A stretch of 64,000 bases of DNA from Candidatus Woesearchaeota archaeon (lineage in GTDB: Archaea; Nanobdellota; Nanobdellia; Pacearchaeales; GW2011-AR1). Shown here in pieces: positions 3,020 to 64,000 of the stretch. Both the position numbers and the translations under genes were made by a program. Under the pieces are notes generated by a model. That model was not told the origin of the DNA and made no database searches. It was given only the letters and a program-made list of their open reading frames with translations. The stretch spans positions 36,625 through 100,624 of the forward strand of contig CAZYZS010000003.1 in the NCBI GenBank assembly GCA_964651965.1, read 5' to 3'. Within the stretch, counting starts at the first letter, position 1, and the number at the start of each line of letters is the position of its first letter.

Positions 3020-3056
3020 AATATATTTTTAAACTACTTATTCTTAGCTGAATTAT

Positions 3057-3151
3057 GGACCCGTAGCTCAGCCCGGTTAGAGCACCGGACTCTTAAATTT
3101 TCAAATTTTGAAGAAATCCGGGTGTCGGGGGTTCAAATCCCCTCGGGTCCA
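3057..3151 (+). tRNA. tRNA-Lys(CUU) with 20-nt intron (about 3097-3116)
   Basis: Hand-folded: acceptor GGACCCG/CGGGTCC, D arm GCTC..GAGC, anticodon stem CCGGA/TCCGG, loop CTCTTAA, T arm GGGGG-TTCAAAT-CCCCT. A T5 run follows (3152-3156). Confidence 0.85.
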
Positions 3152-3170
3152 TTTTTGTTTATCAAATAAA

Positions 3171-8942: not shown

Positions 8943-8973
8943 ATCCTAAAATATATTTCTGAATTAATAAATG

Positions 8974-8981
8974 TTTTTAAA
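8974..8981 (+). promoter_or_regulatory. Putative TATA box for SAM synthetase
   Basis: TTTTTAAA about 30 nt before ATG 9010. This supports the internal Met as the true start. Confidence 0.35.
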
Positions 8982-9009
8982 CAAAATAAGGCATCTTCAA
9001 ATTGATAAA

Positions 9010-38028: not shown

Positions 38029-38115
38029 TGGGCCTGCAAGGAATTGAACCTTGTACCTTCTCGATTTTCAGTGTGCACTCGTGAACGAGACGTTCTGCCG
38101 ATGAACCACAAGCCC
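38029..38115 (-). tRNA. tRNA-Val(CAC) with ~15-nt intron
   Basis: Hand-folded from the reverse complement: acceptor GGGCTTG/CAGGCCC, D arm GTTC..GAAC, anticodon stem TCTCG/CGAGA, loop TTCACG.., T arm CAAGG-TTCAATT-CCTTG, discriminator A. Confidence 0.75.
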
Positions 38116-40118: not shown

Positions 40119-40200
40119 GCGCTAGTCGTCCAGTGGCAAGACGCGAGCTTCCCATATTAGGAAAAAGCTCGTAACCCGGGTTCGAGCCCCGGCTGGCGCA
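40119..40200 (+). tRNA. tRNA-Gly(CCC) with ~11-nt intron
   Basis: Acceptor GCGCTAG/CTGGCGC, anticodon stem CGAGC/GCTCG, loop TTCCCA.., T arm CCGGG-TTCGAGC-CCCGG, discriminator A. Coordinates are anchored on ORF-track positions 40066, 40122 and 40238. Confidence 0.8.
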
Positions 40201-44141: not shown

Positions 44142-47100
44142 ATGGCGAGTAGGATAGAAGTGATAACAACAACTGGGGATACAAGGGCAGAAGTTAGAAG
44201 AAGAAAAATACAGTCAATGGGTCTTCAGTTAAATGAAGTTAATCTAGTTGATGTTTATACACTTGAAGAAGGTTTTGACGCAGAGGGATTAAAATCTATT
44301 GCGTATATGCTTTCTAATCCAGTAACACAAGAAACTGGAATAAATACTCCTAAAGCTCCAGAACAATTTGATTTTGCAATTGAAGTGGGTTATTTATCAG
44401 GTGTAACAGATAACGTTGGAACTACTGCAAGAGGAATTATAGAAGATAGATTTAGAAGGAATTTAAAAGGCCAAGCAGTTTATAGTTCTCAGGTTATGTT
44501 CTTATCAGGAGGTCTAACAAGAGAAGAGGCCGTTAGCATTGGAGACTCATTCTCAAATCCAGTAATTCAAAGAGCTTCTGTTAAAAGTCATGATGAGTTT
44601 ATAAGAGATGGAGGGATGGATGTGATTGTCCCAAGGGTTAGACTTAATGAAGAACCTGTTGCAGGATTAGTTGAGATACTGGACGCAAGCGATACCGAAT
44701 TAACTATAATTGGAAAATCAGGAATATTCGACCATAACGAAGAGCTGTCCAGAGAAGAATACGCCTCTCAGGCTACTCCGGAGCTAATCCAAGTTGGAGA
44801 ATTTTTTGAAAGCGATGGGAAATTTTTCGAGAAAGTAAGAAGAGGACCTCTTGCATTAGTCCCACAAAAAGATAGCGGAGAGCCGGATTTAGCTTATATG
44901 AAAGCTGTTCAAGGTTATTTTAGAGATTTAGGAAGAAATCCTACTGATGTTGAACTAGAATCAATTGCACAAACCTGGAGCGAGCATTGTAAGCATACAA
45001 TATTTGCAGATTCTATAGATGATATCCAAGATGGTTTGTTCAGGCATTTTATTAAAAGGGCAACAAATGAAATAAGAAGAGCGAAAGGGAATAATGATTT
45101 TTGTGTTTCTGTATTTACTGATAATGCTGGGGGGATAGTATTTGATGACGACTATTTAGTTTGTGATAAAGTTGAGACTCATAATTCTCCTTCTGCATTA
45201 GATCCTTTTGGCGGAGCAATAACTGGAATTGTAGGGGTTAATAGGGACCCTATGGGTTTTGGAATGGGAGCAAAACCAATAATAAATAGATATTGGTTTT
45301 GCTTTGCGCCACAAAAGACAATAAAACTTTATCCTGGAATAGAAAGAGCAGTAGCAGCATGTGAAGAGAGAGTTTTTTATCGCGATAAAGGGCTTACACA
45401 AAAAATGTTGTCTCCAAGAAGGATTTTGGATGGAGTGGTTGATGGAGTTAATGTAGGAGGAAATTGTTCTGGAATTCCTACTACTCAAGGAACTGTTTAC
45501 TTTGATGAGAGTTATACGGGAAAACCTCTTGTTGGCGTAGGAACAGTCGGTTTAATACCAAGAGAAATAAACGGAAAACCGAGCCATGAAAAACAGGCAA
45601 TGCCTGGAGATTATATTGTAATGGTTGGTGGCAGAGTTGGAAAAGATGGAATTCACGGAGCAACTTTTTCTTCTGAAGCAATTGATTCTGGAAGCCCTGC
45701 TACTGCTGTTCAAATTGGAGACCCAATAACCCAGAAAAAAATGAGCGATGCTCTTATCAAAGAAGCACGGGACAGGGGATTATATAGAAGCATAACTGAT
45801 AATGGTGCTGGAGGATTATCTTGTTCTGTTGCAGAAATGGCAAAAGAATCTGGTGGATGTTATGTTCATTTGGATAAAGTTCCTTTAAAATATCCTGGGC
45901 TTGCTCCTTGGGAAACCTGGGTTTCTGAATCTCAGGAAAGAATGACTTTAGCAGTTCCAAGAGAAAAATGGGATAGTTTCAATGATTTAATGAGAAGAAG
46001 AGGAGTTGAAGCAACTGTTATTGGAGAATTTACAAGCTCTGGAAAATGTGTTGTGGATTATAATGGAAATAGAGTTATGGATGTTGACATGGAATTTTTG
46101 CATAATGGATTGCCTCCAAGACCAATTAAGACAACTTTCACAAGAAAAAACCATGAGGAGCCAAACTTTGAATGCTTAGATAATTTAACAGAATCCCTGC
46201 ATGAAATGCTAAAGAGACAAAATATCACAAGTTTTGAATTTATTTCTCAACAATATGACCATGAAGTTCAGGGTGGTAGTGTTATTAAACCATTGCAAGG
46301 GAGAGGTAGAGTTAATGGAGATGCAACGGTTGTAAAGCCGAGACTGGATTCAAATAAAGCAGTTGTATTGTCTCAAGGCCTTAATCCTTCTTATAGTGAA
46401 ATTGATACTTATCATATGGCTGCATGCGCAATTGATACTGCAATAAGAAATGCAGTTGCAGCAGGAGCAGATTTGGAACATTTGGCATTATTAGATAACT
46501 TCTGCTGGTGCAGCTCAACTGAACCAGAAAGATTGGGACAACTAAAAAGAGCATGCCAGGCATGTTATGATGTTGCAACAGAATTCGGAACTCCTTTTAT
46601 TTCTGGCAAAGACAGCATGTTCAATGATTTCAAGGGATTTGATGAAGCTGGAAAACCAATAAAAATTTCTGTTCTTCCGACTTTATTAGTTTCGACAATA
46701 GGCGTAATGAAAGATGCCAGAAAAGCTGTTTCTATTGACCCAAAATTTGAAGGAGATTTAGTCTATGTTTTAGGAAGCACTCGTAATGAACTTGGAGGAA
46801 GCGAATATTTTGCAATGATGGGGGAAGAGCAAAGAGGGAAAAAGTACATAGGCAATAATGTTCCAAAAGTTGATGCAAGGAAAAACCTTAGCATGTATAG
46901 GGCATTTTCTAAAGCTGCTGAAGAAGGATTAGTTGCCTCTGCAATGAGCGTTGGCAGAGGAGGATTAGGAACTGCACTGGCAAAGAGTGCAATTGCAGGT
47001 CAATTAGGAATGGAAATTGATTTAGAAAAAGCTCCGGTTGATGAAGAGTTAGGAATGGGAAATGAACATTTACTATATTCAGAAAGCCAAGGAAGATTAG

Positions 47101-47297
47101 TTGTTACTGTTAATCCTGCAAATAGAGAGAGATTTGAAAGTGCAATGGGAGAAAATATTTACAAGCTAGTTGGAAAAGTAAGAGGAGATAATAAATTTGT
47201 TGTTGCAGGATTTTTTGGGCAATCTTCCACAACTGTAGTAGACACTACTGTTGAAGAACTGACACAATCCTATAAATCAACTTTTAAGGAGTATTAA
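44142..47297 (+). CDS. purL: Phosphoribosylformylglycinamidine synthase, synthetase subunit with ~245-aa PurS-like N-terminal extension (PurSL-type, no glutaminase domain)
   Basis: LGRNPTDVELESIAQTWSEHCKHTIF, ETHNSPSALDPFGGA and duplicated AIR-synthase-like domains (GKDGIHGATFSS; ISGKDSMFND). The N-terminus carries two PurS-like segments. Confidence 0.85.
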   Translation: MASRIEVITTTGDTRAEVRRRKIQSMGLQLNEVNLVDVYTLEEGFDAEGLKSIAYMLSNPVTQETGINTPKAPEQFDFAIEVGYLSGVTDNVGTTARGIIEDRFRRNLKGQAVYSSQVMFLSGGLTREEAVSIGDSFSNPVIQRASVKSHDEFIRDGGMDVIVPRVRLNEEPVAGLVEILDASDTELTIIGKSGIFDHNEELSREEYASQATPELIQVGEFFESDGKFFEKVRRGPLALVPQKDSGEPDLAYMKAVQGYFRDLGRNPTDVELESIAQTWSEHCKHTIFADSIDDIQDGLFRHFIKRATNEIRRAKGNNDFCVSVFTDNAGGIVFDDDYLVCDKVETHNSPSALDPFGGAITGIVGVNRDPMGFGMGAKPIINRYWFCFAPQKTIKLYPGIERAVAACEERVFYRDKGLTQKMLSPRRILDGVVDGVNVGGNCSGIPTTQGTVYFDESYTGKPLVGVGTVGLIPREINGKPSHEKQAMPGDYIVMVGGRVGKDGIHGATFSSEAIDSGSPATAVQIGDPITQKKMSDALIKEARDRGLYRSITDNGAGGLSCSVAEMAKESGGCYVHLDKVPLKYPGLAPWETWVSESQERMTLAVPREKWDSFNDLMRRRGVEATVIGEFTSSGKCVVDYNGNRVMDVDMEFLHNGLPPRPIKTTFTRKNHEEPNFECLDNLTESLHEMLKRQNITSFEFISQQYDHEVQGGSVIKPLQGRGRVNGDATVVKPRLDSNKAVVLSQGLNPSYSEIDTYHMAACAIDTAIRNAVAAGADLEHLALLDNFCWCSSTEPERLGQLKRACQACYDVATEFGTPFISGKDSMFNDFKGFDEAGKPIKISVLPTLLVSTIGVMKDARKAVSIDPKFEGDLVYVLGSTRNELGGSEYFAMMGEEQRGKKYIGNNVPKVDARKNLSMYRAFSKAAEEGLVASAMSVGRGGLGTALAKSAIAGQLGMEIDLEKAPVDEELGMGNEHLLYSESQGRLVVTVNPANRERFESAMGENIYKLVGKVRGDNKFVVAGFFGQSSTTVVDTTVEELTQSYKSTFKEY

Positions 47298-47299
47298 AA

Positions 47300-48100
47300 A
47301 TGGCAAATCCAAATGCTTTAGTTTTAACAGGATATGGAATAAACTGCGATGATGAAACAGCATTTGCACTCGCGTTTGATAAAGCAGGGGCAAGAGCAGA
47401 TATAGTCCATATTAATGATTTAATTGCAACACCACAGAAATTAGACAAGTATCAAATCGTTGCTTTTCCCGGAGGGTTTTCATACGGAGATGATACTGGC
47501 TCTGGAAATGCTTTAGCTTGGAAAATAAGAAATAATCTAGGAATAGAAAGATTTACTAAAGAGAATAGATTGATAATAGGAATCTGTAATGGCTTTCAGG
47601 TACTGGTAAATCTTGGACTTCTTCCAGCATTAGATGGAGAGTACGGACAAAGGCAGGTTGCTTTAAATCATAACGATTCTGCAAGGTACTCTTGCAGATG
47701 GGTAGATTTAGAATTCAATGGGAAAAGCCCATGGGTAGAAGGAATTGAAAGAATCTCTTTACCAATAGCTCACGGAGAGGGAAATTTTTACGCAAGTCCA
47801 GCAGTTTTAAGAGAAATTAATGCAAAAGGCTTAGTTGCTGCAAGATACATAGAAGGTGAAATATGCCAGTACCAAAGTCTTCCTGCAAATCCTAACGGTT
47901 CTTTAGAAAATATAGCAGGGATTACAGATGAAAGTGGGAGGATTTTTGGATTAATGCCCCATCCTGAAAGAGCAATAGCTTTCACGCAATTGCCTCATTG
48001 GCCTTTTCTAAGAGAACAACTTATAAGGGCGGGAAGCGAGATTCCAGAGACTGCAGACGGAATAAAAATATTTAAAAATGGAGTAGAATATTTTAAATAA
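47300..48100 (+). CDS. purQ: Phosphoribosylformylglycinamidine synthase, glutaminase subunit
   Basis: FPGGFSYGDD, GICNGFQ (catalytic Cys), AHGEG and MPHPER. An AAGGAG Shine-Dalgarno-like sequence lies upstream. Confidence 0.85.
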   Translation: MANPNALVLTGYGINCDDETAFALAFDKAGARADIVHINDLIATPQKLDKYQIVAFPGGFSYGDDTGSGNALAWKIRNNLGIERFTKENRLIIGICNGFQVLVNLGLLPALDGEYGQRQVALNHNDSARYSCRWVDLEFNGKSPWVEGIERISLPIAHGEGNFYASPAVLREINAKGLVAARYIEGEICQYQSLPANPNGSLENIAGITDESGRIFGLMPHPERAIAFTQLPHWPFLREQLIRAGSEIPETADGIKIFKNGVEYFK

Positions 48101-48101
48101 A

Positions 48102-49415
48102 ATGGCAAAAGTAATGATAGTTGGTTCTGGAGCAAGGGAACACGAGATTGCTCTTTCTTATATGCGCTCAAAAAATGTTAGCGAAGTTCTTGTAACTCCT
48201 GGAAATGATGGAATGATAAATAACAGGCTAAATAGAGAACCTGCTAATATAATAATAAATAAATCTTCTTCTTTAAAAGACCCCTCTTCAATTCTTTTGG
48301 TCGCTCAAGAATACAAACCAGATTTAGTTGATGTAGCTCAAGATGACGCATTGGCTGCAGGAACAGTTGATTTGTTAGAAAAAAATGGGTTCAGAGTTTT
48401 CGGCCCATCTAAGCTAGCTGCGCAGATTGAGTGGGATAAAGAATGGTCTAGAAGCTTTATGTTAAGACACGGCATTCCAGTTCCTGAATATAAATCTTTT
48501 TCTGATATTGGAGAGGGCAGAGCATACGCTTGTGATTTGCTTGCAAGAAAAGGAGGCGTATTTTTTAAAGCAGCGGGATTATATGCTGGCAAAGGAGTAA
48601 TCCCTGCATTTAGTAGAGAAGAAGTAGAAGAAGCTGCAAGAAAAATTCATGATATAGGAGAAGCATCAAGAGTTTTTCTTGTTGAAGAAGCGATGGTAGG
48701 AGAAGAATTTTCTTATTATGCTATTGTCGATGGAAGAGCTTTCCAATGTTTTAAGTCGTCACAAGATAATAAGCGGGTTAATAACAGAGACCAAGGGCCA
48801 AATACAGGAGGAATGGGAGCAAATGCTCCTGCCTTAATTACTCGCGGTTTAGAGAAAAGAATAGAAGAAGAAATAATTTCTCCAGCAGTAAGAGGAATGC
48901 TAGAAGAAGGTCGGTCTTATAAAGGAGTATTATATCTAGGTGGGATGGTTTGTAAAGACGGAAGCTTAAAAGTAGTTGAGTTTAATTCTAGATGGGGAGA
49001 TCCTGAATGCCATGTTGTTCTTCCTGGAGTAATAAGTGATTATTTTGATTTAGTAAGTCATGCAGTTGATGGGACTCTCCAAGATTTTAAATTAGAAGAA
49101 GATGATATCTCAAGAGTTTGTATTATAAGCGCTTCTACAGGTTATCCTGGGGATTATCAAAAAGGCAAAAAAATTTGGATTGATAATGAAAAAATTCCTG
49201 CTGGAATACATCTTTTGAGTGCAGGAATCCAAGTTAAAGACGGACAGATTTATACAGGCGGTGGAAGGGTTTTTAGTGTTGTTGCAGAAGGCAGAAATGT
49301 AATCGAAGCTAGAATGCGAGCATTACAAGGAATAGCCTGTTGTTCGATTGAAGATAATGGATTACACTATAGAACTGATATTGCATGGAGGGATGTACAA
49401 AGAGTTCAAAAATGA
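48102..49415 (+). CDS. purD: Phosphoribosylamine--glycine ligase
   Basis: MIVGSGAREHEIA, an ATP-grasp core, NTGGMGA and VEFNSRWGDPE. Confidence 0.9.
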   Translation: MAKVMIVGSGAREHEIALSYMRSKNVSEVLVTPGNDGMINNRLNREPANIIINKSSSLKDPSSILLVAQEYKPDLVDVAQDDALAAGTVDLLEKNGFRVFGPSKLAAQIEWDKEWSRSFMLRHGIPVPEYKSFSDIGEGRAYACDLLARKGGVFFKAAGLYAGKGVIPAFSREEVEEAARKIHDIGEASRVFLVEEAMVGEEFSYYAIVDGRAFQCFKSSQDNKRVNNRDQGPNTGGMGANAPALITRGLEKRIEEEIISPAVRGMLEEGRSYKGVLYLGGMVCKDGSLKVVEFNSRWGDPECHVVLPGVISDYFDLVSHAVDGTLQDFKLEEDDISRVCIISASTGYPGDYQKGKKIWIDNEKIPAGIHLLSAGIQVKDGQIYTGGGRVFSVVAEGRNVIEARMRALQGIACCSIEDNGLHYRTDIAWRDVQRVQK

Positions 49416-54048: not shown

Positions 54049-54157
54049 TGAGGCTGCGCAGATTTGAACTGCGGACCCCCGCCTTATCAGACTCACCTCC
54101 TGCCTAAATGTTCTCAGGACAGGATGCGGTGCTCTAACCGGGCTGAGCTACAGCCTC
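54049..54157 (-). tRNA. tRNA-Ile(GAU) with 34-nt intron at a non-canonical position (within anticodon stem, about 30/31)
   Basis: Hand-folded: acceptor GAGGCTG/CAGCCTC, D arm GCTC-AGCCCGGTTA-GAGC, 5' stem CCGC[intron]T pairing with GGCGG, loop CTGATAA, T arm CGCAG-TTCAAAT-CTGCG, discriminator A. Confidence 0.7.
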
Positions 54158-54269: not shown

Positions 54270-54842
54270 ATGGCAAGAGGAATGTATTATTATTTAAGAA
54301 AGGCCTGGAAAAAACCAGACGAAAAAGTACTAAGAGAAAGAATGATTCAATGGAGAAAGTCAGAAACAGTAGTCAAGGTTGAAAAACCATTAAGATTAGA
54401 CCGCGCAAGAAGCCTGGGCTACAAAGCCAAAAAAGGATTTATAGTTGTAAGAGTAAGGATTAAAAGAGGGGGAAGAAAAAGGCCTACAAGAAGCAAAGGC
54501 AGGAGAAGCAAGAGGCAAACTATAAGAAAAGTAGTTAAAATGAGTTACAGGTGGATTGCAGAAGCAAGAGTTGCAAAAAAATACCCTAATATGGAAGTAT
54601 TAAACTCCTACTTAATTGGAAAAGATGGCATCAATTATTTCTTTGAAGTTATTTTAGTTGATAAAAACAGGCCTGAAATTAAAAACGACCCTACAATGAA
54701 CTGGATATGTAAATCCTCCAACAAGAATAGAGTATTCAGGGGATTAACAAGCGCAGGAAAAAAGAGCAGGGGCTTGTTGAAAAAAAACCCTGAAAACAAA
54801 AGCAGGCCATCTGTAATGGCTTCTGACAGACAAGGAAAATAA
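54270..54842 (+). CDS. rpl15e: 50S ribosomal protein L15e
   Basis: MARGMYYYLRKAWKKPDE...RVRIKRGGRKRP...GRRSKRQ is a characteristic L15e sequence. Confidence 0.9.
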   Translation: MARGMYYYLRKAWKKPDEKVLRERMIQWRKSETVVKVEKPLRLDRARSLGYKAKKGFIVVRVRIKRGGRKRPTRSKGRRSKRQTIRKVVKMSYRWIAEARVAKKYPNMEVLNSYLIGKDGINYFFEVILVDKNRPEIKNDPTMNWICKSSNKNRVFRGLTSAGKKSRGLLKKNPENKSRPSVMASDRQGK

Positions 54843-55778: not shown

Positions 55779-56798
55779 ATGCCAAAACAGAGGACAATAA
55801 AAGAAGTAACTGACCTGTTAGTAGGAATTGAACCCTATGGAGGAAACGCCGTTAACGTTAGGATTTATCCAGCAGAACCAAATACAGGGATTGTTTTTAC
55901 TGACGGAAAACACTGGATTAAATTAGAAGATAGATACCTTCACACTGGCCATAGGCTTGCTCTCGCAAAAACACTGTTTTTAGAAAGAGATGGTGTAAAA
56001 GTAAGAGGATTAGAGCACCTTACAGGGGATATATTTGTGCACAGAATTGACAATGCAGTAGTGGAACTAAAAATGGAACCTCATTTAAGTTATAGGTTAT
56101 TCCACCGGCTTGGGCAGGCAAGAAACACCATAGTTGTTCCGTACTTTCCGGACTTAGAAGGAGGAGTGTGCAGAGCATTAAAAAAAGCAGGAATAGAAGA
56201 ACAACCTAAAGATATACCTTATCTTAGACTTAAAACCAATATAGATACAGAAAAAATAAAATTAGAAAAAATAAAAGGCGATGAGGTTGTTGTAGAAGCT
56301 AGAACCAGATACGCTCTTGCTAACGGCGACGTTGTTGAAGGAACAAGAACAATTACCTTAGTTCCAGAAGAATACAATGGCATAGCCAATGCAAGAGCTT
56401 TTTTTGGAGTCCCAATTGCTGTTCCAGAAGGTTTTACCAGAAAAAGAGGCATTTTACATAGCAGTTTTCCAACGTTATTTTCAAAAAGTGCGATGAGGTT
56501 TATAGGGCATTTTCTATATCTTAGTTTCGGACTTGGAACCGGGATTAATGAAGCTAATTCGTTTTACCCTCCAACTTCGGCTACAGAATGGAAAGAAAGA
56601 CAACTAAGGGAAAATGAAATAGCCGAACACTCGATAGTAGATCGGGCAGGAGACTTTATGGAAAGGCTTTACTTGATATTTAATGCTCGACCTGCTGGCA
56701 TGAAACTCACTTGCCAATTTGCAGGACATAAAGATGCACATGACCTTATAAGAAAGTGCGGTACAGAATATAGGAACAGATTTTATATAGAAGATTAA
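55779..56798 (+). CDS. LpxC-family (UDP-3-O-acyl-GlcNAc deacetylase-like) zinc hydrolase homologue
   Basis: PKQRTIK..., PAEPNTGIVF, GLEHL, ARAFFG, EHSIVDRAGD and AGHKDAH line up with E. coli LpxC (recalled from memory) at KQRTLK, PAPANTGVIY, VEHL (E78/H79), ARTFGF, RHKMLDAIGD (H238/D242/D246) and SGHALN (H265). Confidence 0.6.
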   Translation: MPKQRTIKEVTDLLVGIEPYGGNAVNVRIYPAEPNTGIVFTDGKHWIKLEDRYLHTGHRLALAKTLFLERDGVKVRGLEHLTGDIFVHRIDNAVVELKMEPHLSYRLFHRLGQARNTIVVPYFPDLEGGVCRALKKAGIEEQPKDIPYLRLKTNIDTEKIKLEKIKGDEVVVEARTRYALANGDVVEGTRTITLVPEEYNGIANARAFFGVPIAVPEGFTRKRGILHSSFPTLFSKSAMRFIGHFLYLSFGLGTGINEANSFYPPTSATEWKERQLRENEIAEHSIVDRAGDFMERLYLIFNARPAGMKLTCQFAGHKDAHDLIRKCGTEYRNRFYIED

Positions 56799-57507: not shown

Positions 57508-57891
57508 CTAATCTACCAAACGTAGTTTCTCTCGAAGCTGTTCAAATTCTCTATAATCCTGAGTTAATTCCTCTCCTTTTGCTATGTCTCGTTTAGCAAC
57601 TAAAGATTTTTCCTTTAAAGTTATATTTCCATCAGAACTATGATTGCAAAATCTTATGTCATCAAAAGAAAGATGCCATTTGCTTTTGGCTTTATCAAAA
57701 TATCCATAATGTTTAATTGTGTTTTGCTCATCAAGAGCCAGTTTAGAACATTCTTCTTCTGAAAGGAACAAATCTAGATTTTCATTTCCAGTGTATATTT
57801 TTTGACCTTTGCTGATATCTTGCCCCGCAAATAACCCTATTCCGTGAATCTTACTTTTCTTTAATTCTATTTTTACATGAAACATAACCAA
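57508..57891 (-). CDS. SET-domain protein (putative lysine methyltransferase)
   Basis: IHGIGLFAGQDISKGQKI, FCNHSSDGN and GEELTQDY. Confidence 0.7.
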   Translation of the reverse strand: MVMFHVKIELKKSKIHGIGLFAGQDISKGQKIYTGNENLDLFLSEEECSKLALDEQNTIKHYGYFDKAKSKWHLSFDDIRFCNHSSDGNITLKEKSLVAKRDIAKGEELTQDYREFEQLREKLRLVD

Positions 57892-57934: not shown

Positions 57935-58741
57935 TTAGTAACTCTCTCTATCACTCCTATCATATGCCTCGTAATCTGGTCCAGTTACACAAGTATCTGC
58001 TCTGCAGTCTAATCCATCATAGCAAAAAGAAGTGAACTGCTGCATATTTTTACAGCAATCCTGGTCTAGATGCCCGCATTCGCTAGATTCTTGTGAATCA
58101 GGCTGGTAGCCATAAGGGTCGTAGTTAGGAGTGTCCTGGCTGTCAATATTAGACTGACTTGGTGTTGAAACTGTCTCTGCTTCTACTTTTTTGCAAGTTC
58201 CGCTTATGCACTGCCCATAAGCGCACGGATAATCAGTAGGGCAGCATGGCTGCTCGTAATCTCCACAAGCCTCGCATATCCCGCTGTAGGAGTTATAAAC
58301 CCCATAATAACAGCCACTATCGCAAGGAACATACCCAATCATCCCGCAATCATCATAATAATCAGAATTAACTTTGCATCTTCCCAGAGTGCAGCTTGCT
58401 CCTTGAAAACACTGAAGATTATCGTAATCTTTATAACAGCAGGCCTCACCAAAACTACCGCAATGAATACATTTCCCATTTTGGCATTCTCCATAATAAC
58501 AAACTCCATCAGAACAACAGGTTCCTCCATACTCCCCACAACCTGATTCAGAATAACTGTCATAAACAGAATTGGCAGAATCCGAACTAGAAGGAGTTGT
58601 CGAAGAATAATCAGAAACAGCCGCCCCAGTTACTTTAGGTTCAAAAAAAGGCCTGATAAAATAATATCCCCCAATAACAACAACTATTAAAAGAATAAGA
58701 ATAATAACCGCCGCGAAACTTGCCTTTTTATTCATCCTCAT
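57935..58741 (-). CDS. Membrane-anchored/secreted protein with five tandem Cys-rich (CG..CC..C..C..C) modules
   Basis: TM anchor AAVIILILLIVVVIGGYYFI and a Ser-rich linker. Modules: CGEYGGTCCSDGVCYYGECQNGKC, CGSFGEACCYKD..C..C..GRC, CGMIGYVPCDSGC.., CGDYEQPCCPTDYPCAYGQCISGTC, CGHLDQDCCKN..C..C..DTC. Confidence 0.65.
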   Translation of the reverse strand: MRMNKKASFAAVIILILLIVVVIGGYYFIRPFFEPKVTGAAVSDYSSTTPSSSDSANSVYDSYSESGCGEYGGTCCSDGVCYYGECQNGKCIHCGSFGEACCYKDYDNLQCFQGASCTLGRCKVNSDYYDDCGMIGYVPCDSGCYYGVYNSYSGICEACGDYEQPCCPTDYPCAYGQCISGTCKKVEAETVSTPSQSNIDSQDTPNYDPYGYQPDSQESSECGHLDQDCCKNMQQFTSFCYDGLDCRADTCVTGPDYEAYDRSDRESY

Positions 58742-58794
58742 TAAAAAGATAGAGGATTTTTAAATTTATATGTAGTTGAAAATGACAAATAGTT

Positions 58795-60033
58795 TTATTT
58801 TAAGTCAGATGGTTTTATATCGATTTTTATTTTTTTAGGTGTTATTATTAGCAAGAAAATTGCAATAATAACTCCTGCGATTCCCAAAATACTAAAAGCC
58901 AGTTTAATTAAAATTAAATCTGCTAAAAGTCCTCCTATCATTGGCCCAAAAATATAAGCAAAATTAAAAGAAGAGTCTTCTAAGGATTCTATTTCTTTTT
59001 CAACTATCTGAGTTTCAGAGATGTAATCTGCATAAGCGCCATTTATAGAAGGCAAAGCTAAATTAATAAAACATGCTGAAAGAAAAGTCAAAAGTATTAT
59101 TGTTATTGGAGTGCTCCAAAAATAAAAGAAAGAAAGAATAAAACATCCAATTAAAAGCCCTAAAAAAGCTGTCTTTTTCTTGCCTAATCTTTTAGTAATT
59201 TTCCCAGTATACCATCCCAATATTAAAGTTGGAAGTGCATAGGCCGTTAAGAATAATCCTCCGAAGTACTTAGGAATTGCTTCTTCAGCATATAATGGTG
59301 CGAGAGTCCAGAAAAAAGACTCTATAAAAAAAGCAAAGAAAGTAACAGCTAAGACAGGAAATATTTTTTTGCCTATTTTTCTCCAGAGCCTAAATTCCAG
59401 GAAAATATTTCTGAAGTTCGCCCGTTTAGTTTCTTTCTTGCGCACTTTACCTCCAGTCATAATGTTTAAAGTTATGAAAAAGATTATGGAAATAATCAGG
59501 AATATCCATCCGAATATAAATGGCAAGAAGGTTATTCCATCAATTATCAAAAGTCCTGCAATAGTTGGCGCCAAGATTATTCCTAAGTACTTAGCTATCT
59601 GGATTATTCCAAAATTAGAAGAATATTCTTTCTTTTTTGTGTAAATGCTTACAAAATCAAAAATCCCAAATCCAGACAAATCGAAATAAATTCCCCAAAG
59701 AGCCATTGCAACCAGGTAAACTAAGATAGAAGAAGCTTTCCACAGAATTAATGGATAAATAAGACATGCCAAAAACATCAGAAGAAATACTCTCCGGAAA
59801 TTAGTATTTCTGAAAAATCTGCAAACTAAGACATCAAAAAGAACGCCAGTTATAGAAGAAGTCCCAATTATAAATCCAATAAGGGTCATTGAAAAATTAT
59901 TTTGTGACAATAAAATTGGAACGAGGTAGGTCATGATTCCATCAAATATAGCCCAGAATAATATCATCAAAGATAAGATATAGATTGGAGAAGCAACTTT
60001 CTTGTATTTCCACAGGTACTTATTTAGAATCAT
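58795..60033 (-). CDS. MFS transporter
   Basis: 412 aa with about 12 TM segments in a 6+6 layout and a central basic loop (KVRKKETKRANFRN). Confidence 0.7.
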   Translation of the reverse strand: MILNKYLWKYKKVASPIYILSLMILFWAIFDGIMTYLVPILLSQNNFSMTLIGFIIGTSSITGVLFDVLVCRFFRNTNFRRVFLLMFLACLIYPLILWKASSILVYLVAMALWGIYFDLSGFGIFDFVSIYTKKKEYSSNFGIIQIAKYLGIILAPTIAGLLIIDGITFLPFIFGWIFLIISIIFFITLNIMTGGKVRKKETKRANFRNIFLEFRLWRKIGKKIFPVLAVTFFAFFIESFFWTLAPLYAEEAIPKYFGGLFLTAYALPTLILGWYTGKITKRLGKKKTAFLGLLIGCFILSFFYFWSTPITIILLTFLSACFINLALPSINGAYADYISETQIVEKEIESLEDSSFNFAYIFGPMIGGLLADLILIKLAFSILGIAGVIIAIFLLIITPKKIKIDIKPSDLK

Positions 60034-60042
60034 TTAATCCTC

Positions 60043-61326
60043 CTAAATAATGTAAAGATGATGAAACTCTTTATTCCTTTTTAGTTTAACATCTGGGTTA
60101 TATTTTGCCAGTTTTAAGGAATTTTGTTTTTTAAAAACATATTCTTGTACTCTCATGTTATCAAACATAAAATACCTGAAATAGGAATCCCATAAATCTT
60201 CCACAAAATTTGCTCCAGGCTTTATATCGCTGAACATCAGGCTGAAAATAGAGGCGAATATGCCTACAATTACCTGAGTATAAGTAGCATTAGTTCCAAT
60301 GGTTGCAAGATTCGGAACCGAATTAAAATAATAAACTTTTTTGTCAGGATAATCAAGAATCACCCCTATGCTGTCTGCACCATCTAGAATTTCACATGCA
60401 TTATCTCCTATCCTTAAGTCCTTTTTAGTTATATTTTTCTTATCTTCATAGATTTTGACTAGATATTTAAGTGTCTGCTGGTTTATCCCATAAATAAATT
60501 TTGAAGGGATATCGTACTTAGAAGATACAGAAAGATTTTCTTCATGCAAAACTGTCATTCCTTCGGGATACTGCCCCATCTTCCAGATAGGGCTTAATAT
60601 TTTCTTCATGCTTCTTCTATTTTCCAAAGCATTTGGTAAAAGCTTTTTTATCTTATTTTTACCAACCGCAAATCCGGAAGGGTCCCTTACTGATTCCACT
60701 AGAAACTCATGCAAAGACCAGGTCATCATAGGCCTCCATTTTCTAGCATCAATAGAAGTATCGTATTCAAAGTGAATTATTTCTTTCGGAATCCCGAATT
60801 TTTCTATGCCATATCTCACCCACATGTTCACATTGCCAGGATTCATTCCAGTACAGAGTATGTGAGGCGCATTATTCAGGGAGTCTTTTCGTGGATATAC
60901 ATTATAAACTAATTCAGAAACCATTTTGTTATCGTCGTTCATTGCAGTATTAATATAAGAAATTTTTGCTTTGTCAGTAGCTTCTAATGCCTCTATGCTG
61001 TTCATATCAGTTATGTCCAATACAATATCAATCTTATTGTCTTTCAATAGTTTAATGTATTCTCTTTCTTTCTCAGGCAATACTATTTCTTTATGTATGA
61101 ACTTATAATTTAGCAGTTCATGGTCTATATATGGGTCCTTAAGAAGCTTTTTATTTTTATCCAGTAAAATCACCTTGTTAAAATGATTTCTCTCGCTAGG
61201 AAGATGATGCAAAAAAGCATTAGCTACCCCTCCAGATGCCCCTAAAACTAAAAGATTCGGTTTATCTAACATTTTCTCTTTTTTTATATAGAGCGAAGTT
61301 AATTTATAAAGATTATGGATAGACAA
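60043..61326 (-). CDS. Saccharopine-dehydrogenase-family NAD(P)-binding protein (homospermidine-synthase-like)
   Basis: LLVLGASGGVANAF Rossmann motif, ILCTGMNPGNVNMWV and MTWSLHEFLVES resemble the bacterial HSS / saccharopine dehydrogenase family. The start may be MLDKPN (61272). Confidence 0.5.
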   Translation of the reverse strand: MSIHNLYKLTSLYIKKEKMLDKPNLLVLGASGGVANAFLHHLPSERNHFNKVILLDKNKKLLKDPYIDHELLNYKFIHKEIVLPEKEREYIKLLKDNKIDIVLDITDMNSIEALEATDKAKISYINTAMNDDNKMVSELVYNVYPRKDSLNNAPHILCTGMNPGNVNMWVRYGIEKFGIPKEIIHFEYDTSIDARKWRPMMTWSLHEFLVESVRDPSGFAVGKNKIKKLLPNALENRRSMKKILSPIWKMGQYPEGMTVLHEENLSVSSKYDIPSKFIYGINQQTLKYLVKIYEDKKNITKKDLRIGDNACEILDGADSIGVILDYPDKKVYYFNSVPNLATIGTNATYTQVIVGIFASIFSLMFSDIKPGANFVEDLWDSYFRYFMFDNMRVQEYVFKKQNSLKLAKYNPDVKLKRNKEFHHLYII

Positions 61327-61332
61327 AAGAAG

Positions 61333-62463
61333 CTATCCAAGCACTTTTCTTGTAAATTTAATCTTTCTTATCAAATCTCCAATTACAAAACACAATGTAA
61401 CTCCAAGTATCGAAACAAAAATAAACTTAACATAAGATGGAATAAAAATACCCTGGAAAATTATTACAAGAGGAAGAATTACTAGCTGATGGATTATATA
61501 AACAACATAAAAATTAGGAGCCATCCAGGCAATTAAATTTCCCTGCGAGTTAAGCCTTTTCTTAAAAATGTAAATTAAACTGATTATAATGCTGTAGCAT
61601 GCAATTGTCTCCCAGAAAGAATAAACTAACGACTGCCATGTCAGTCCACCTGTAAATTTTTCAGTGTTTTCTGCTGCCCCTCCAAATACAAATATAAATG
61701 GCAGAGCCACAAGAACTACAACAGCAATTATTTTCCATAGCCTTGCCTGTTTTGCCCCAAGGCTTTCAAGCCAATTCCCTCTGTACGCAAGGATTCCAAT
61801 CCAGAAACAAAAAATGTAATTGACAAAATGAGCCAACTGAAAAATATGAATTTCCACTCCTACCGGGAAAAGGGTACGGACAAAGAAAGTTAAGATTGCA
61901 AGAACAAAGATGCTTATTACAATTGTTCTATTAGAAGGAAATTTATCCTTAAAACAAATAAACGACTTATTTATTAAACCCCTGTATAAAACATAAACAA
62001 AGCAGAAAATAAGCAGAGCTTCAACAAACCATAATGGCCCGACAAACCATCCAGGATCTTTTAAATTATAAGCAATTACATTCACAAAAGTTATTGTCTC
62101 GCCTCTAAAAAAATTCAAGATAAGATAATCTATTATTACCTTAAAAACAGTTGTATAAATTAACAAAGGAATTCCCAATCTAATCAGCCTGTCTCCCAAA
62201 AACTTCCCTGCTCCTTTTCTGTCAAAAGACCCTAGAGTAAAATATCCTGAAAGCAAGAAAAACAAGCCCATAAAAAAGCTTTGGCAGATTGCATTAAAAA
62301 GAGTAAGAATTATCGGGCTTATCTCATCGCTTGCCCCTTCTTTAGCAGGATAAATGCCCTCTCCTCCATAAATAATAGAAATATGAATAAGTACAACAAG
62401 GATTATAAGAAAAAGCCTGATATTATCAATATACAAAAGTCTATCCTGCCTGCCTTTCTCCAT
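61333..62463 (-). CDS. Acyltransferase family 3 membrane protein
   Basis: RLLYIDNIRLFLIILVVLIHIS start and about 10 TM segments, typical of Acyl_transf_3 (OatA/OpgC-like). Confidence 0.7.
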   Translation of the reverse strand: MEKGRQDRLLYIDNIRLFLIILVVLIHISIIYGGEGIYPAKEGASDEISPIILTLFNAICQSFFMGLFFLLSGYFTLGSFDRKGAGKFLGDRLIRLGIPLLIYTTVFKVIIDYLILNFFRGETITFVNVIAYNLKDPGWFVGPLWFVEALLIFCFVYVLYRGLINKSFICFKDKFPSNRTIVISIFVLAILTFFVRTLFPVGVEIHIFQLAHFVNYIFCFWIGILAYRGNWLESLGAKQARLWKIIAVVVLVALPFIFVFGGAAENTEKFTGGLTWQSLVYSFWETIACYSIIISLIYIFKKRLNSQGNLIAWMAPNFYVVYIIHQLVILPLVIIFQGIFIPSYVKFIFVSILGVTLCFVIGDLIRKIKFTRKVLG

Positions 62464-62619
62464 TATCGGACAAAGAAAGCCCGATTATTAAATTTTTGCA
62501 ATTATTATAATTTTAGAATAAATGTTGCTATATGCCCCTAAAGGTAATGTTATACAAAATAAATTTTGGAGCGCTAATAAGCAATATTTATATAAATGCA
62601 ATTGTATTTTTAACTTATT

Positions 62620-63315
62620 ATGAGAATTAAGACTTACTTGAATTGCACTGAGCAAGATATCAAATCAAAAAAGTTTAACATTTTTGTAGGTATCAGTTTA
62701 GGGAACAAGTATTTTACCAAAGAAAATATTAAAAAGTATATTTTTTGGGCTTTGGAAAATACTAAAGAAGATGTTTTAGTTTTAATCGCAGATAAAAACC
62801 ACGCAATAAATTATGAAGTTCTCAATGATTACAGTCATGAAAGAGCTCTACAAGTCGCATTAAGAAAGGGTTTAGAAATTGAAGAATCTGTTAAAAAAAT
62901 AGTACGTGGGCTACCAAAAGAAAAACACCATCTTATTAAAATTTGCAAATGGGATGATGCAAGAAAGTCCTTTTATTATCAAAACAAAATAAAAATTTTT
63001 CTTGATGAATTTAGAGAAAATATCAAATTCCACGATTTCATAATAAAAATTGTTCAAGAGAATTTAGGAGAAAAGGCAATCAATTTAGATGTTGAACAAT
63101 TAGAAAAATTGTCTTTGTACATTCTTGATGAATGTCCAATTTTTTTGAATGGCGTGGAATTTGATGGAAAAATTTATGATTTACATCCTTATCCAGGGCT
63201 TTCTTGCTTTGATGATTTACTAATAGATTTGCAAAATGGAAAAATGTTCCCTAATCTTGCAAAGAGGTTAGAGATAAAAAATAAGATTGCAGAAGTAGAA
63301 GCTTACGTTGAATAG
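62620..63315 (+). CDS. tRNA-dependent cyclodipeptide synthase (CDPS)
   Basis: FNIFVGISLGNKYFTKENIKKYIFWAL...DVLVLIADK versus AlbC ALIGISAGNSYFSQKNTVMLLQWAG (recalled). LYILDECPIF versus NYVLAEAPLF (Y178/E182). A Tyr-Pro pair lies 20 residues after that Glu (XYP-type). Confidence 0.7.
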   Translation: MRIKTYLNCTEQDIKSKKFNIFVGISLGNKYFTKENIKKYIFWALENTKEDVLVLIADKNHAINYEVLNDYSHERALQVALRKGLEIEESVKKIVRGLPKEKHHLIKICKWDDARKSFYYQNKIKIFLDEFRENIKFHDFIIKIVQENLGEKAINLDVEQLEKLSLYILDECPIFLNGVEFDGKIYDLHPYPGLSCFDDLLIDLQNGKMFPNLAKRLEIKNKIAEVEAYVE

Positions 63316-63441
63316 ACCGGCGCCAAAATCTGCTCAAGGGAAAGCTGCGCTACGAAAACTTCTTTTATCCAATAGGTTCAACTCCCCCACTAATGTAAAA
63401 TATATAAACTCTTTTTCCATTATCAGGTTATAAAAAAGAAC

Positions 63442-64000
63442 ATGAAATACTCTCTACTCTGCGAAGTATACGAAGCTCTTGAAAGCCATGCTTCTCGACT
63501 GGAAAAAACAGAGATCCTAGCGGATTTCCTGAAAAAAATAAAGAGTGAAAAAAATAAAGATATTATTTATCTCCTGCAGGGAAGGATTTTTCCTGATTAT
63601 GATAATAGAGAAATTGGAATTTCAACTCAGCTAGTAATGAAAGCTCTTTCACGCTCTACAGGCTTATCTGCAGGTGAAATAGAAAAGCACTGGAAGAAAT
63701 TAGGAGATTTAGGATTAGTCGCAGAACTTATAACATCAAAAAAAAGGCAGTCAACTCTCTCTTCTTCCCAACTTACAACAGAAAAAGTACTAACAAACCT
63801 GCAAAAACTTCCTGCGTTAGAAGGAAAAGGGACAGTAGACAAAAAAATGGCTTTAATTTCAGAATTATTAACCTCTGCTTCACCTAAAGAAGCAAAATAC
63901 ATTGTCAGGACCCTTCTCTCAGACTTAAGAATCGGGACAGGCGCAGGAACTCTAAGAGACTCTATTGTCTGGGCTTGCTTTGACAAAGAAAACAAAGAAG
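63442..64000 (+). CDS. lig: ATP-dependent DNA ligase, N-terminal (DNA-binding domain) part; continues past window end
   Basis: My translation: MKYSLLCEVYEALESHASRLEKTEILADFLKKI...LLQGRIFPDYDNREIGIS...GDLGLVAE...KYIVRTLLSDLRIGTGAGTLRDSI, typical of archaeal Lig N-termini. The frame is anchored on ORF-track coordinate 63627. Confidence 0.75.
   Translation, partial: MKYSLLCEVYEALESHASRLEKTEILADFLKKIKSEKNKDIIYLLQGRIFPDYDNREIGISTQLVMKALSRSTGLSAGEIEKHWKKLGDLGLVAELITSKKRQSTLSSSQLTTEKVLTNLQKLPALEGKGTVDKKMALISELLTSASPKEAKYIVRTLLSDLRIGTGAGTLRDSIVWACFDKENKE

Follow-up and report, generated by a model that had tools for sequence, protein, structure and literature searches.

A contig of 157 kb from an archaeal assembly carries the stretch of 64,000 nucleotides that was analyzed here (hereafter, the window), and near the 3' end of this window lies an open reading frame (ORF) that the original prediction had read as a tRNA-dependent cyclodipeptide synthase (CDPS) in an archaeal, DPANN-like genome. 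The 231-residue ORF is present as described, and its translation contains both of the segments on which that reading had drawn, FVGISLGNKYFTKENIKKYIFWAL...DVLVLIADK and LYILDECPIF (Table 1). On either side of it are L15e (at 54270) and an ATP-dependent DNA ligase (at 63442); the tRNA genes are 87–109 nt long, a length that suggests introns, and the ValRS of the same contig is closest to those of Pacearchaeota and Nanoarchaeia. These markers bear out the archaeal, DPANN-like origin that had been proposed. The description of the organism as a reduced archaeon has to be tempered, since the window carries purine-biosynthesis genes and is not maximally reduced. Independent assemblies of the locus (L001-L003, from JGI and Logan) contain the identical gene with identical junctions to both of its neighbours. 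The source samples are JGI 3300027723 and 3300009082 and SRR5468432.

Table 1. Coordinates of the CDPS gene, its associated elements and its neighbours in the window
Feature	Position	Strand	Remarks
CDPS gene	62620..63315	+	231 aa, ATG start; profile HMMs, alignment, AF2 model
TATA-box-like element TTTATATA	62587..62594	+	direct sequence reading; promoter function inferred
Conserved ~0.8-kb cassette	62550..63351	+	promoter, CDS and 36 nt 3' tail; nucleotide alignment
Direct-repeat copy 1 CTTTCTCCATTATC	62454..62467	.	overlaps the real acyltransferase start (minus strand ATGGAGAAAG, M-E-K)
Direct-repeat copy 2 CTTTTTCCATTATC	63411..63424	.	13/14 identical to copy 1; 17 nt upstream of ligase ATG
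Membrane acyltransferase-3 (AcylT3, MdoC/OpgC-like)	61333..62463	-	divergent neighbour of CDPS
Cys-rich secreted protein, MFS transporter, saccharopine-dehydrogenase-like protein	57935..61326	-	family annotation, synteny
Short-type SET-domain methyltransferase	57508..57891	-	N-H-S motif and catalytic Tyr kept; 4.7 kb from CDPS
ATP-dependent DNA ligase (archaeal/eukaryotic type), 5' part	63442..64000	+	downstream housekeeping neighbour

Profile searches placed the ORF above the curated cut-offs of both the Pfam CDPS model PF16715 (52.2 bits, cut-off 27, E = 8.5e-14) and the NCBIfam model TIGR04539 (75 bits, cut-off 45, E = 5.9e-21), and the PDB entries 7QAT/7QB8, which represent the enzyme ParcuCDPS, matched it over its full length (E = 5e-30). 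An AlphaFold (AF2) model of the ORF (pLDDT 97.1, pTM 0.92) retrieved CDPS structures alone among the best 50 PDB matches in Foldseek; ParcuCDPS was the top match (TM 0.81/0.85), and YvmC, AlbC, Rv2275 and other CDPSs were matched with TM 0.58–0.79, in keeping with the one-domain, Rossmann-type CDPS fold that is akin to the catalytic domains of class-Ic aminoacyl-tRNA synthetases. Direct reading of the translation found no motif similar to the ATP-binding signatures HIGH and KMSKS of the aminoacyl-tRNA synthetases, the position of HIGH being taken by a GISLGN loop. Comparison with ten relatives gave dN/dS ratios of 0.08–0.21, which indicate purifying selection. At the level of sequence and predicted structure, these observations confirm the ORF as a genuine and intact tRNA-dependent CDPS. 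The find extends a known family, and standard annotation pipelines already recognise the gene.

The archetypal NYH CDPS, AlbC of Streptomyces noursei (PDB 3OQV), which makes cyclo(Phe-Leu), has the same fold as the ORF, whereas the sequence similarity between the two is weak (E 0.027). The AlbC string GISAGNSYFSQKNTVMLLQWAG, which had been cited in support of the prediction, proved to be an exact match to residues 35–56 of that protein. Residues 14–177 of the query align with AlbC 25–188, segments of equal length at a constant offset of 11, so that S26, Y167, E171 and Y191/P192 of the ORF are equivalent to S37, Y178, E182 and Y202/P203 of AlbC; N29 corresponds to N40, and the ping-pong set S26, Y167, E171, Y191 and N29 is common to both enzymes. 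Position 203 is His in AlbC but Pro in the window enzyme, which is therefore XYP-type, and the Tyr-Pro pair lies exactly 20 residues past E171, as had been claimed. The entire catalytic set of S26, D58, Y167, E171 and Y191-P192 is kept, and in a proper alignment with about 115 homologues the Ser/Tyr/Glu/Tyr constellation holds throughout, as does the Tyr-Pro pair of XYP type. S26, situated in the G-x-S-x-G-N loop (GISLGN), is conserved in 116/117 aligned homologues and P192 in 115/117, while N29, D58, Y167, E171 and Y191 are invariant in alignments of 47–117 homologues. The X of XYP, AlbC position 40, denotes a residue that is not conserved in the subfamily; in the clade of the window enzyme it is the invariant Asn29, giving an N-Y-P signature; ParcuCDPS has this signature too, and its authors class it as XYP (PMC7613923). 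In genomic setting AlbC, which is clustered with the AlbA/B oxidase, differs from the window CDPS, which stands alone.

ParcuCDPS (CDPS 90; PDB 7QB8 and mutants), from Parcubacteria bacterium RAAC4_OD1_1, makes cyclo(His-Pro) and cyclo(His-Glu), and is the best match of the window enzyme both in sequence (colinear over residues 6–215 with identical numbering) and in structure. Both enzymes come from ultra-small, host-dependent lineages, the one from a CPR bacterium and the other from an archaeon. They have in common S26, D58 (the Asp of an unusual Ser/Asp dyad, in which it would be hydrogen-bonded to the catalytic Ser), Y167, E171, Y191-P192, N29 and G84, yet their identity in a MAFFT alignment is only about 33%. 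Mutagenesis in ParcuCDPS established the roles of S26, D58, Y167, E171 and Y191 (PMC7613923). By analogy with this enzyme and with the family at large, the first aminoacyl-tRNA would deliver its aminoacyl group into pocket P1 and then onto Ser26, activated by Asp58; the residue of the second aminoacyl-tRNA would be delivered from pocket P2 to yield a dipeptidyl-enzyme, and Tyr167, Glu171 and Tyr191 would help its cyclisation to a 2,5-diketopiperazine. Helix 73–96 is unbroken in the AF2 model as assigned by DSSP, whereas ParcuCDPS is kinked at G84, and the fine geometry of the two enzymes may differ.

The mapping of the specificity pockets was calibrated on ParcuCDPS, for which it reproduced the published motifs exactly. 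In the window enzyme P1 consists of F22, G24, L55, A57, W111, I174, F175 and H189 (FGLAWIFH, as against GAYAWELY in ParcuCDPS), and P2 of I144, E147, N148, E151, G193, S195 and C196 (IENEGSC, as against FEWKYTR). Two basic residues of the ParcuCDPS P2 pocket (K151, R196) and two bulky ones (W148, Y193) have thereby been lost. The His-binding triad Y55/E174/Y189 of ParcuCDPS is replaced by L55/I174/H189, and hence we do not file the window enzyme as a cyclo(His-X) synthase. Its closest characterised P1 motifs are those of the XYP enzyme CDPS 91 of Methylovulum miyakonense (FGLAWSLL; Phe; products cFF/cFY/cFL) and of CDPS 85/86 (FGLGCIFF; Leu/Ile; products cLI/cLL). Compared by motif alone, each is identical to the window enzyme in 5/8 positions, with Leu or Phe instead of His at position 8 and unrelated P2 motifs. 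The ParcuCDPS variants Y55V+E174L and E174L+Y189L exchange the use of His for that of Leu or Phe (PMC7613923). As P1 is a hydrophobic pocket whose floor bears a single His, the first residue incorporated is most likely hydrophobic or aromatic (Phe, Leu, Ile, Met or Tyr) rather than His. P2 is open and without a basic residue, so that the second residue is not predictable, and the rules of P2 specificity are acknowledged to be unclear (PMC5816076). A lysine-containing product is pure speculation, the two Glu residues in P2 being its sole support. SET and GNAT enzymes, which occur beside other members of the clade, are classic modifiers of the lysine N-epsilon group; such partners accompany both His-type and hydrophobic-type P1 pockets, and for this reason the idea stays speculative. 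Lysine has never been seen in any CDPS product (Gondry 2018).

The centre of the TATA-like element lies some 29 nt ahead of the CDPS ATG, and no Shine-Dalgarno sequence was found upstream of the gene in the sequence as read, an arrangement that implies a leaderless or near-leaderless transcript; the element suggests that the gene is expressed. It is kept nearly base-for-base in two homologous loci, L004 and L007. The cassette to which it belongs has 83–84% nucleotide identity to L007 and L004, yet the flanking genes differ, and the homology stops at a GC-rich ...GCGCT... motif at both ends. Within the window this boundary motif (GCKGCGCT) shows no enrichment, with 3 matches against 0.9 expected, and is not a dispersed repeat; the GC-rich 3' tail, evaluated as a structured RNA or terminator, has no significant fold (z = +0.9). 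The 14-nt direct repeats, with their 13/14 identity, are by themselves near chance level. The second copy is located in the acyltransferase-ligase intergenic region, where a CDPS-less locus with the same acyltransferase and ligase (L073) has its acyltransferase start (some 56 nt away from the ATG of the ligase), and it resembles the remnant of an M-E-K start. The CDPS clade appears to move as a single-gene cassette, which, equipped with its own TATA box, would have been transferred from one genomic site to another and across the divide that separates DPANN archaea from CPR bacteria.

That archaeal CDPSs are only sporadic, as originally stated, holds for the literature, with one metagenomic archaeal sequence in Gondry 2018, but not for current databases: the clade comprises about 158 clusters at 50% identity, spread across DPANN and CPR genomes, and its members in databases are already auto-annotated as tRNA-dependent CDPSs. 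AQS34941 has been described as a metagenomic archaeal XYP CDPS with all XYP characteristics, nearest to metagenomic sequences and of unknown specificity (Gondry et al. 2018). It probably falls within the clade of the window enzyme, and P0034, a sequence labelled 'uncultured archaeon' and 62% identical to the window enzyme, may be the same protein. No relatives of the CDPS were found on IMG/VR contigs, which were searched for a viral origin or carriage, and PADLOC, consulted for a defence role, returned no match for the CDPS, SET or GNAT proteins. A 231-aa ORF upstream of the SET gene in another locus (L075) was considered as a divergent CDPS and rejected (BLASTP E 1.9, no Pfam match).

This distribution raises the issue of whether the gene might be a bacterial (CPR) contaminant or lie on a mis-binned contig. 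Patescibacteria hold many homologues, including one that is 73% identical and encoded on a genuinely bacterial contig, and the GC content of the CDPS gene is 28% against 35% for the window. However, the 64-kb window is unbroken, archaeal markers flank the gene on either side, the window has the long tRNA genes and its contig the Pacearchaeota-like ValRS; the junctions of the gene are reproduced in the three independent assemblies, its promoter is an archaeal-type TATA box, and its orthologues on other archaeal contigs diverge as much as housekeeping genes do. We hence regard contamination or mis-binning as exceedingly improbable. A different concern is that the protein has the CDPS fold with another activity, such as aminoacyl transfer from tRNA to some other acceptor, or is an inactive relic. 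In the searched literature no member of the hydrophobic-P1 clade has a biochemical assay, and for several CDPSs of the characterised set no product was obtained in E. coli (PMC5816076, Table 1 therein). On the other hand, the residues for both half-reactions and for cyclisation are all invariant, the dN/dS ratios argue against a relic or an altered activity, and ParcuCDPS, the nearest characterised relative in the subfamily, does make cyclodipeptides, which makes such a departure from the family activity quite unlikely. Very probably, then, a DPANN archaeon of Pacearchaeota/Woesearchaeota type carries in this ORF an active stand-alone tRNA-dependent CDPS that belongs to the ParcuCDPS-like branch of the XYP subfamily, as predicted from sequence comparisons and the structural model. 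The searched literature contains no biochemically characterised archaeal CDPS and, from the whole CPR/DPANN clade, ParcuCDPS alone.

The remaining alternatives concern the company that the enzyme keeps. It could be the core of a larger cluster with AcylT3, the saccharopine-dehydrogenase-like enzyme and the MFS exporter: the genes lie side by side, the CDPS and the AcylT3 side diverge from a common intergenic region of 156 bp, and an exporter and an acyltransferase would be plausible for export and tailoring. Against this, none of these genes lies next to a CDPS in 59 GTDB loci save in the identical-genome assemblies L001-L003, nor beside the CDPS of the closer relatives L063-L069; in L073 AcylT3 adjoins SET and the ligase without a CDPS, and the block from the Cys-rich protein to the saccharopine-dehydrogenase-like protein is missing from the syntenic site. 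Moreover, AcylT3 is of the MdoC/OpgC-like type, typically a glycan O-acyltransferase, the saccharopine-dehydrogenase-like protein matched neither a named NCBIfam family nor a sequence in the PDB, and none of the candidates belongs to a known CDPS tailoring family. We consider such a cluster very unlikely, and a conserved grouping of AcylT3, the saccharopine-dehydrogenase-like, MFS and Cys-rich proteins with the CDPS was rejected, as it did not recur in the other genomes examined and AcylT3 occupies the same place in CDPS-less L073. Among the ten genes within about 8 kb, annotation with Pfam and NCBIfam found no cyclodipeptide oxidase, P450, 2-OG oxygenase, prenyltransferase or class-I methyltransferase, so the window CDPS would operate without an adjacent tailoring gene, and the distant SET gene is the sole candidate. 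Across the clade, in turn, the CDPS repeatedly adjoins or is fused to SET-domain or class-I methyltransferases, or adjoins GNAT acetyltransferases. A SET ORF directly adjoins the CDPS in 9/57 loci, often overlapping its stop codon, and CDPS-SET fusions form three separate 50%-identity clusters; three further such clusters are fusions to class-I SAM methyltransferases, so that two unrelated methyltransferase folds have been fused to one enzyme. Among loci whose upstream context is known, L004 is the nearest (80% CDPS identity, same cassette); there, SET lies 100 bp upstream on the same strand. The window SET is 58% identical to that of L004 and still has both the N-H-S motif and the catalytic Tyr. 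These associations favour a pairing in which the CDPS and the window SET make a methylated diketopiperazine, with SET acting on a small molecule rather than on protein lysine. Such a pairing is nevertheless unlikely for the window: its SET gene lies on the opposite strand and is separated from the CDPS by 4.7 kb and four genes, a CDPS adjoins none of the three closest long-contig SET homologues that were checked, L073 has the same HisPhos-SET-AcylT3-ligase block without any CDPS, and SET and GNAT are both absent from many CDPS loci. We know of no SET enzyme that methylates a small molecule, and a literature search for such activity found nothing.

The window CDPS, then, belongs to an uncharacterised clade common to ultra-small archaea and CPR bacteria and is not unprecedented, and its calibrated pocket motifs give a product prediction other than cyclo(His-Pro). 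For a genome-reduced, host-dependent cell, one 231-aa enzyme that diverts charged tRNAs is among the cheapest routes to a bioactive small molecule. A role of the product in signalling or antagonism, as put forward with the original prediction, is speculative. Candidates for new tailoring chemistry are the SET, GNAT and class-I methyltransferase partners that recur in the clade. More tentatively, and with a low probability in our estimate, the CPR/DPANN clade as a whole may be a horizontally mobile single-gene cassette with which ultra-small episymbionts convert charged tRNAs to a diketopiperazine at the least expense to their genomes, the product being methylated by SET in many members, possibly including the window archaeon by way of its nearby SET gene, and the compound serving symbiont-host interaction; if true, this would be the first case of a SET-domain methyltransferase whose substrate is a small-molecule natural product. 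The presence of the gene in both DPANN archaea and CPR bacteria, with up to 73% identity across domains, together with purifying selection, suggests that the CDPS belongs to the ultra-small episymbiont lifestyle as a trait that is shared and can be transferred.

The open reading frame that the original prediction had read as a tRNA-dependent cyclodipeptide synthase (CDPS) has the position, strand, length and start codon given for it, and the peptides quoted from it (FVGISLGNKYF..., DVLVLIADK and LYILDECPIF) are all found in the translation, as is the claimed Tyr-Pro pair 20 residues past the Glu. The AlbC segment given for comparison agrees letter for letter with residues 35-56 of AlbC; from it, the entry of the S37C mutant (4Q24) departs solely at the catalytic Ser. 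The identical gene, with the same neighbours, is present in three independent assemblies (two from JGI and one from Logan). Profile searches with the window protein exceeded the curated thresholds of both family models, namely Pfam PF16715 (52.2 bits against 27) and NCBIfam TIGR04539 (75 bits against 45). Its best sequence matches in the PDB are the seven entries of ParcuCDPS, the solved CDPS of Parcubacteria bacterium RAAC4_OD1_1 (E 5e-30 to 1e-28), with residues 6-215 aligning colinearly under identical numbering; other matches are the P. gingivalis CDPS, the S. haemolyticus cLL synthase, BtCDPS, YvmC, Rv2275 and AlbC. An AlphaFold2 model based on 47 homologues (pLDDT 97.1, pTM 0.92) retrieved only cyclodipeptide synthases among its 50 best Foldseek matches in the PDB, with ParcuCDPS at the top (TM 0.81/0.85). 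None of the three outcomes named beforehand as refuting the identification came about, and it is correct in every checkable respect. It adds a new, uncharacterised enzyme to a known family but nothing categorically new, because standard pipelines already recognise the protein.

Mutagenesis of ParcuCDPS showed that S26, D58, Y167, E171 and Y191 are all required, with S26 and D58 forming an unusual Ser/Asp dyad (PMC7613923). The window protein carries all of these, along with P192 and N29 (AlbC N40); the Ser/Tyr/Glu constellation (S26/Y167/E171) survives alignment, and the catalytic positions are invariant or nearly so in ~115 homologues, the 47-sequence homologue alignment A1 and 55 genome loci. 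The alignment with AlbC has a constant offset of 11, and therefore S26, Y167, E171 and Y191/P192 correspond to AlbC S37, Y178, E182 and Y202/P203. The Y191-P192 pair conforms to the signature of the XYP subfamily, which with N29 reads strictly "N-Y-P" in the window enzyme. Neither HIGH nor KMSKS motifs occur in the translation, and dN/dS against ten relatives is 0.08-0.21. We infer from the sequence an active enzyme that uses the ping-pong mechanism established for the CDPS family: Ser26 would take the aminoacyl group, the resulting aminoacyl-Ser26 would be converted to a dipeptidyl-enzyme, and the Tyr would assist cyclisation of its dipeptide.

The substrate pockets P1 (AlbC residues 33-35-65-67-119-185-186-200) and P2 (152-155-156-159-204-206-207) were mapped after Gondry et al. 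2018 (PMC5816076), with calibration on ParcuCDPS, whose published motifs GAYAWELY (P1) and FEWKYTR (P2; PMC5816076) were both reproduced exactly. The same mapping gives FGLAWIFH and IENEGSC for the window enzyme. Whereas ParcuCDPS recognises His by Y55, E174 and Y189, the window enzyme has L55, I174 and H189 at these positions, and ParcuCDPS variants switch product: Y55V+E174L yields 84% cyclo(Leu-Pro) and E174L+Y189L 70% cyclo(Phe-Pro) (PMC7613923). The closest characterised P1 motifs are FGLAWSLL, of a Phe-accepting XYP enzyme, and FGLGCIFF, of cLI/cLL enzymes. Given the replaced His triad, the behaviour of these variants and the nearest motifs, the first residue is most likely hydrophobic or aromatic, with His189 at the P1 floor leaving Tyr possible. 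In P2, the bulky and the basic residues that ParcuCDPS has are gone (W148N, Y193G, K151E and R196C, from ParcuCDPS to the window enzyme). The pocket motifs predict that the window enzyme makes other products than the sole studied representative of the clade, which forms cyclo(His-Pro) and cyclo(His-Glu). The P1 motifs of the clade are of discrete types, among them a His type, GGYAWExY, seen in CPR-type loci only (ParcuCDPS included), and a hydrophobic type shared by archaea and CPR, which includes the window enzyme.

The view that CDPSs are sporadic in archaea holds for the literature, in which Gondry et al. 2018 report just one archaeal XYP sequence, metagenomic and of unknown specificity (PMC5816076), but fails for the sequence databases. 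Of the 154 homologues retrieved by a word-indexed search, many bear the name "tRNA-dependent cyclodipeptide synthase" already and come from Nanoarchaeota, Pacearchaeota, Lokiarchaeota and Patescibacteria. A scan of GTDB species representatives brought up 59 loci (14 labelled DPANN archaea, most others CPR), and in an exhaustive profile search 158 of the 1,347 CDPS-like clusters (50% identity) reached E <= 1e-30. Apart from the ParcuCDPS work, our literature search found no paper tying CDPSs to DPANN or CPR lineages.

The window itself is archaeal. Its description as DPANN-like is supported by ribosomal protein L15e, an ATP-dependent DNA ligase, three tRNA genes whose lengths of 87-109 nt suggest introns, and a ValRS whose named relatives (62-72% identity) are almost all Candidatus Pacearchaeota or Nanoarchaeia and which NCBI places with the CDPS on one 157-kb contig. 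The accompanying term "reduced" stands only in part, since genes for FGAM synthase and GAR synthetase are present in the window; with the purine-biosynthesis cluster to which they belong, the genome is less metabolically reduced than had been assumed. ARAGORN reads one long tRNA as an odd 'tRNA-???' with a four-base anticodon, which Rfam treats as a normal, probably intron-containing tRNA; it misses two further long tRNAs and reports a tRNA-Gly(CCC) missing from the Rfam list. A separate archaeal protein of 339 aa matches bacterial LpxC (lipid A deacetylase) over its ~100 first residues only, below the NCBIfam curated cut-offs; such a domain is unexpected in an archaeon.

Descent inside this archaeal group is compatible with the identities at two archaeal loci, L066 and L067, where the CDPS is 62-63% identical to that of the window and housekeeping orthologues 50-68%. 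A bacterial copy (L005/L071, JBHPEK010000001.1), 73% identical, lies mid-contig on 88 kb of a Patescibacteria single-cell genome (SAG AM-311-F06), with unambiguously bacterial flanks (ClpB, L33, MiaA/MiaB, RelA/SpoT, ParB and DprA). Because the window CDPS is nearer to this copy than to several archaeal ones, the simplest reading is that the gene passed recently between DPANN archaea and CPR bacteria. The window CDPS gene has 28% GC against 35% for the window as a whole, and no relatives were found in the viral contigs searched.

The neighbours of the CDPS differ in almost every locus. Despite different neighbours, the window shares 83-84% nucleotide homology with L007 and L004, starting 70 or 49 nt 5' of the ATG and reaching exactly 36 nt beyond the stop (62550/62571 to 63351). 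Both ends carry a GC-rich ...GCGCT... motif, in L004 a perfect 13-nt direct repeat (4295/5070). The homologous upstream part has a canonical archaeal TATA box, its centre ~29 nt from the ATG, and lacks a Shine-Dalgarno sequence, pointing to a leaderless transcript. The locus with the closest SET homologue, L073, has the order HisPhos-SET-AcylT3-ligase without CDPS. Compared with this order, the window shows two insertions: the CDPS, which lies between AcylT3 (acyltransferase-3) and ligase, and a CysRich-MFS-SacDH block, which separates SET from AcylT3. The CDPS insertion is bracketed by a 14-nt direct repeat (13/14 identical), whose second copy falls in the intergenic region that holds the AcylT3 start in L073. 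Taken by itself, this 14-mer is close to what chance would give in 1.3 kb of AT-rich sequence. Several genomes have direct repeats of 13-36 nt on both sides of the CDPS; those at CPR loci L018 (7959/8719) and L040 (294/1040) are 28 nt and ~36 nt long, where shuffled sequence gave at most 12-13 nt. The window shows no enrichment of the boundary motif, and no fold was found in the 3' tail. The repeats could represent target-site duplications of a cassette ~0.8-0.95 kb long; together with the homology ends they suggest, but do not prove, a single-gene insertion cassette.

Clustering of all ORFs around 57 CDPS loci revealed two small families that directly adjoin the CDPS, often overlapping its stop codon: SET-domain proteins in 10 loci (adjacent in 9) and GNAT acetyltransferases in 6, archaeal as well as CPR, where they may take the place of SET as tailoring partner. 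Three separate clusters at 50% identity (P0071, P0347, P0397) have a SET domain fused to the CDPS C-terminus. Among the further architectures (P0418, P0430, P0456, P0444), three clusters carry a class-I SAM methyltransferase behind the CDPS, and in one fusion a phosphoribosyltransferase precedes it. That two unrelated methyltransferase folds are fused to the same CDPS argues for product methylation as a recurrent tailoring step. P0427 (624 aa) and P0429 (716 aa) have large additional regions with no Pfam match. The SET proteins fall into a short and a long subtype, of which the long one has a post-SET Cys cluster; the N-H-S motif and the catalytic Tyr are retained in both. The searched literature has no mention of a functional CDPS-SET link. 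In L004 the same cassette lies 100 bp downstream of a SET orthologous to that of the window; of the SET homologues on long contigs, the three closest were examined and none of them adjoins a CDPS, and we consider functional coupling of the window SET to the CDPS in this genome improbable. In Pacearchaeota-like L074, a class-Ic aaRS of the TyrRS/TrpRS type is followed immediately by a SET homologue 65% identical to the window's, which begins right past the aaRS stop; CDPSs are structurally related to class-Ic aaRS, and the juxtaposition may be coincidence.

The CDPS-divergent genes encode an MdoC/OpgC-like acyltransferase-3, a saccharopine-dehydrogenase-like (SacDH-like) protein, an MFS transporter and a Cys-rich secreted protein. 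In the other genomes examined, none of them was found with the CDPS, nor does any belong to a known CDPS tailoring family. The SacDH-like protein has no named family or PDB relative, and defence-system models gave no match to the CDPS, SET and GNAT proteins. The Cys-rich protein (268 aa) carries a transmembrane or signal segment at its N-terminus and many Cys/Gly/Tyr-rich repeats at regular intervals, and matches nothing in Pfam or NCBIfam; its gene, in the three-gene block missing at the syntenic L073 site, has 42% GC against 31-34% in its neighbours. Elsewhere, a MetRS-like class-I aaRS lies directly upstream of the CDPS at one archaeal locus and two labelled bacterial, shortened to 457 aa in L066. 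Near the SET-CDPS pair of L004, the closest relative, an Asp/Glu-racemase-methyltransferase fusion and an archaeal-type D-aminoacyl-tRNA deacylase (DTD2) are D-amino-acid or aa-tRNA connected, and neither is conserved elsewhere.

Coordinates of features in the window and in the genome loci compared with it (L-handles)
Feature	Position	Strand	Remarks
CDPS gene	62620-63315	+	231 aa, ATG start
TATA box TTTATATA	62587-62594	+	
Direct-repeat copy 1	62454-62467		AcylT3 start, M-E-K, minus strand
Direct-repeat copy 2	63411-63424		relic M-E-K start, 17 nt before ligase ATG
ATP-dependent DNA ligase	from 63442		archaeal marker
Ribosomal protein L15e	54270-54842		archaeal marker
Purine-biosynthesis cluster	44142-49415	+	includes 1051-aa fused FGAM synthase and GAR synthetase
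SET gene	57508-57891	-	strand opposite CDPS, 4.7 kb from it
Cys-rich protein	57935-58741	-	
LpxC-matching protein	55779-56798	+	
tRNA, 'tRNA-???'	3056-3152		
tRNA-Gly(CCC)	40119-40200		ARAGORN
Further long tRNAs	38029-38115, 54049-54157		Rfam
Bacterial CDPS	L071:9001-9696		
SET beside CDPS	L004:3906-4250, L008:3197-3682, L020:8677-9129, L021:8675-9064, L042:8695-9165, L050:4718-5212		
GNAT immediately beside CDPS	L011:8724-9149, L012:7576-8001, L013:8744-9196, L019:8684-9112, L030:3855-4289, L051:8753-9175		~142 aa
MetRS-like aaRS	L066:5513-6886, L039:5877-7448, L030:1902-2915		
Class-Ic aaRS-SET juxtaposition	L074:4939-6378		
Racemase-methyltransferase fusion; DTD2	L076:1446-2741; 8524-9366		

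An ecological role in signalling, antagonism or nutrient acquisition toward a host is speculation. Beyond the original prediction, interest is added by the breadth of the clade over DPANN and CPR genomes, by the previously unreported partnership of SET, GNAT and methyltransferase proteins with the CDPS, and by a clear case for inter-domain transfer, the cassette-like organisation and a predicted product unlike those of ParcuCDPS.
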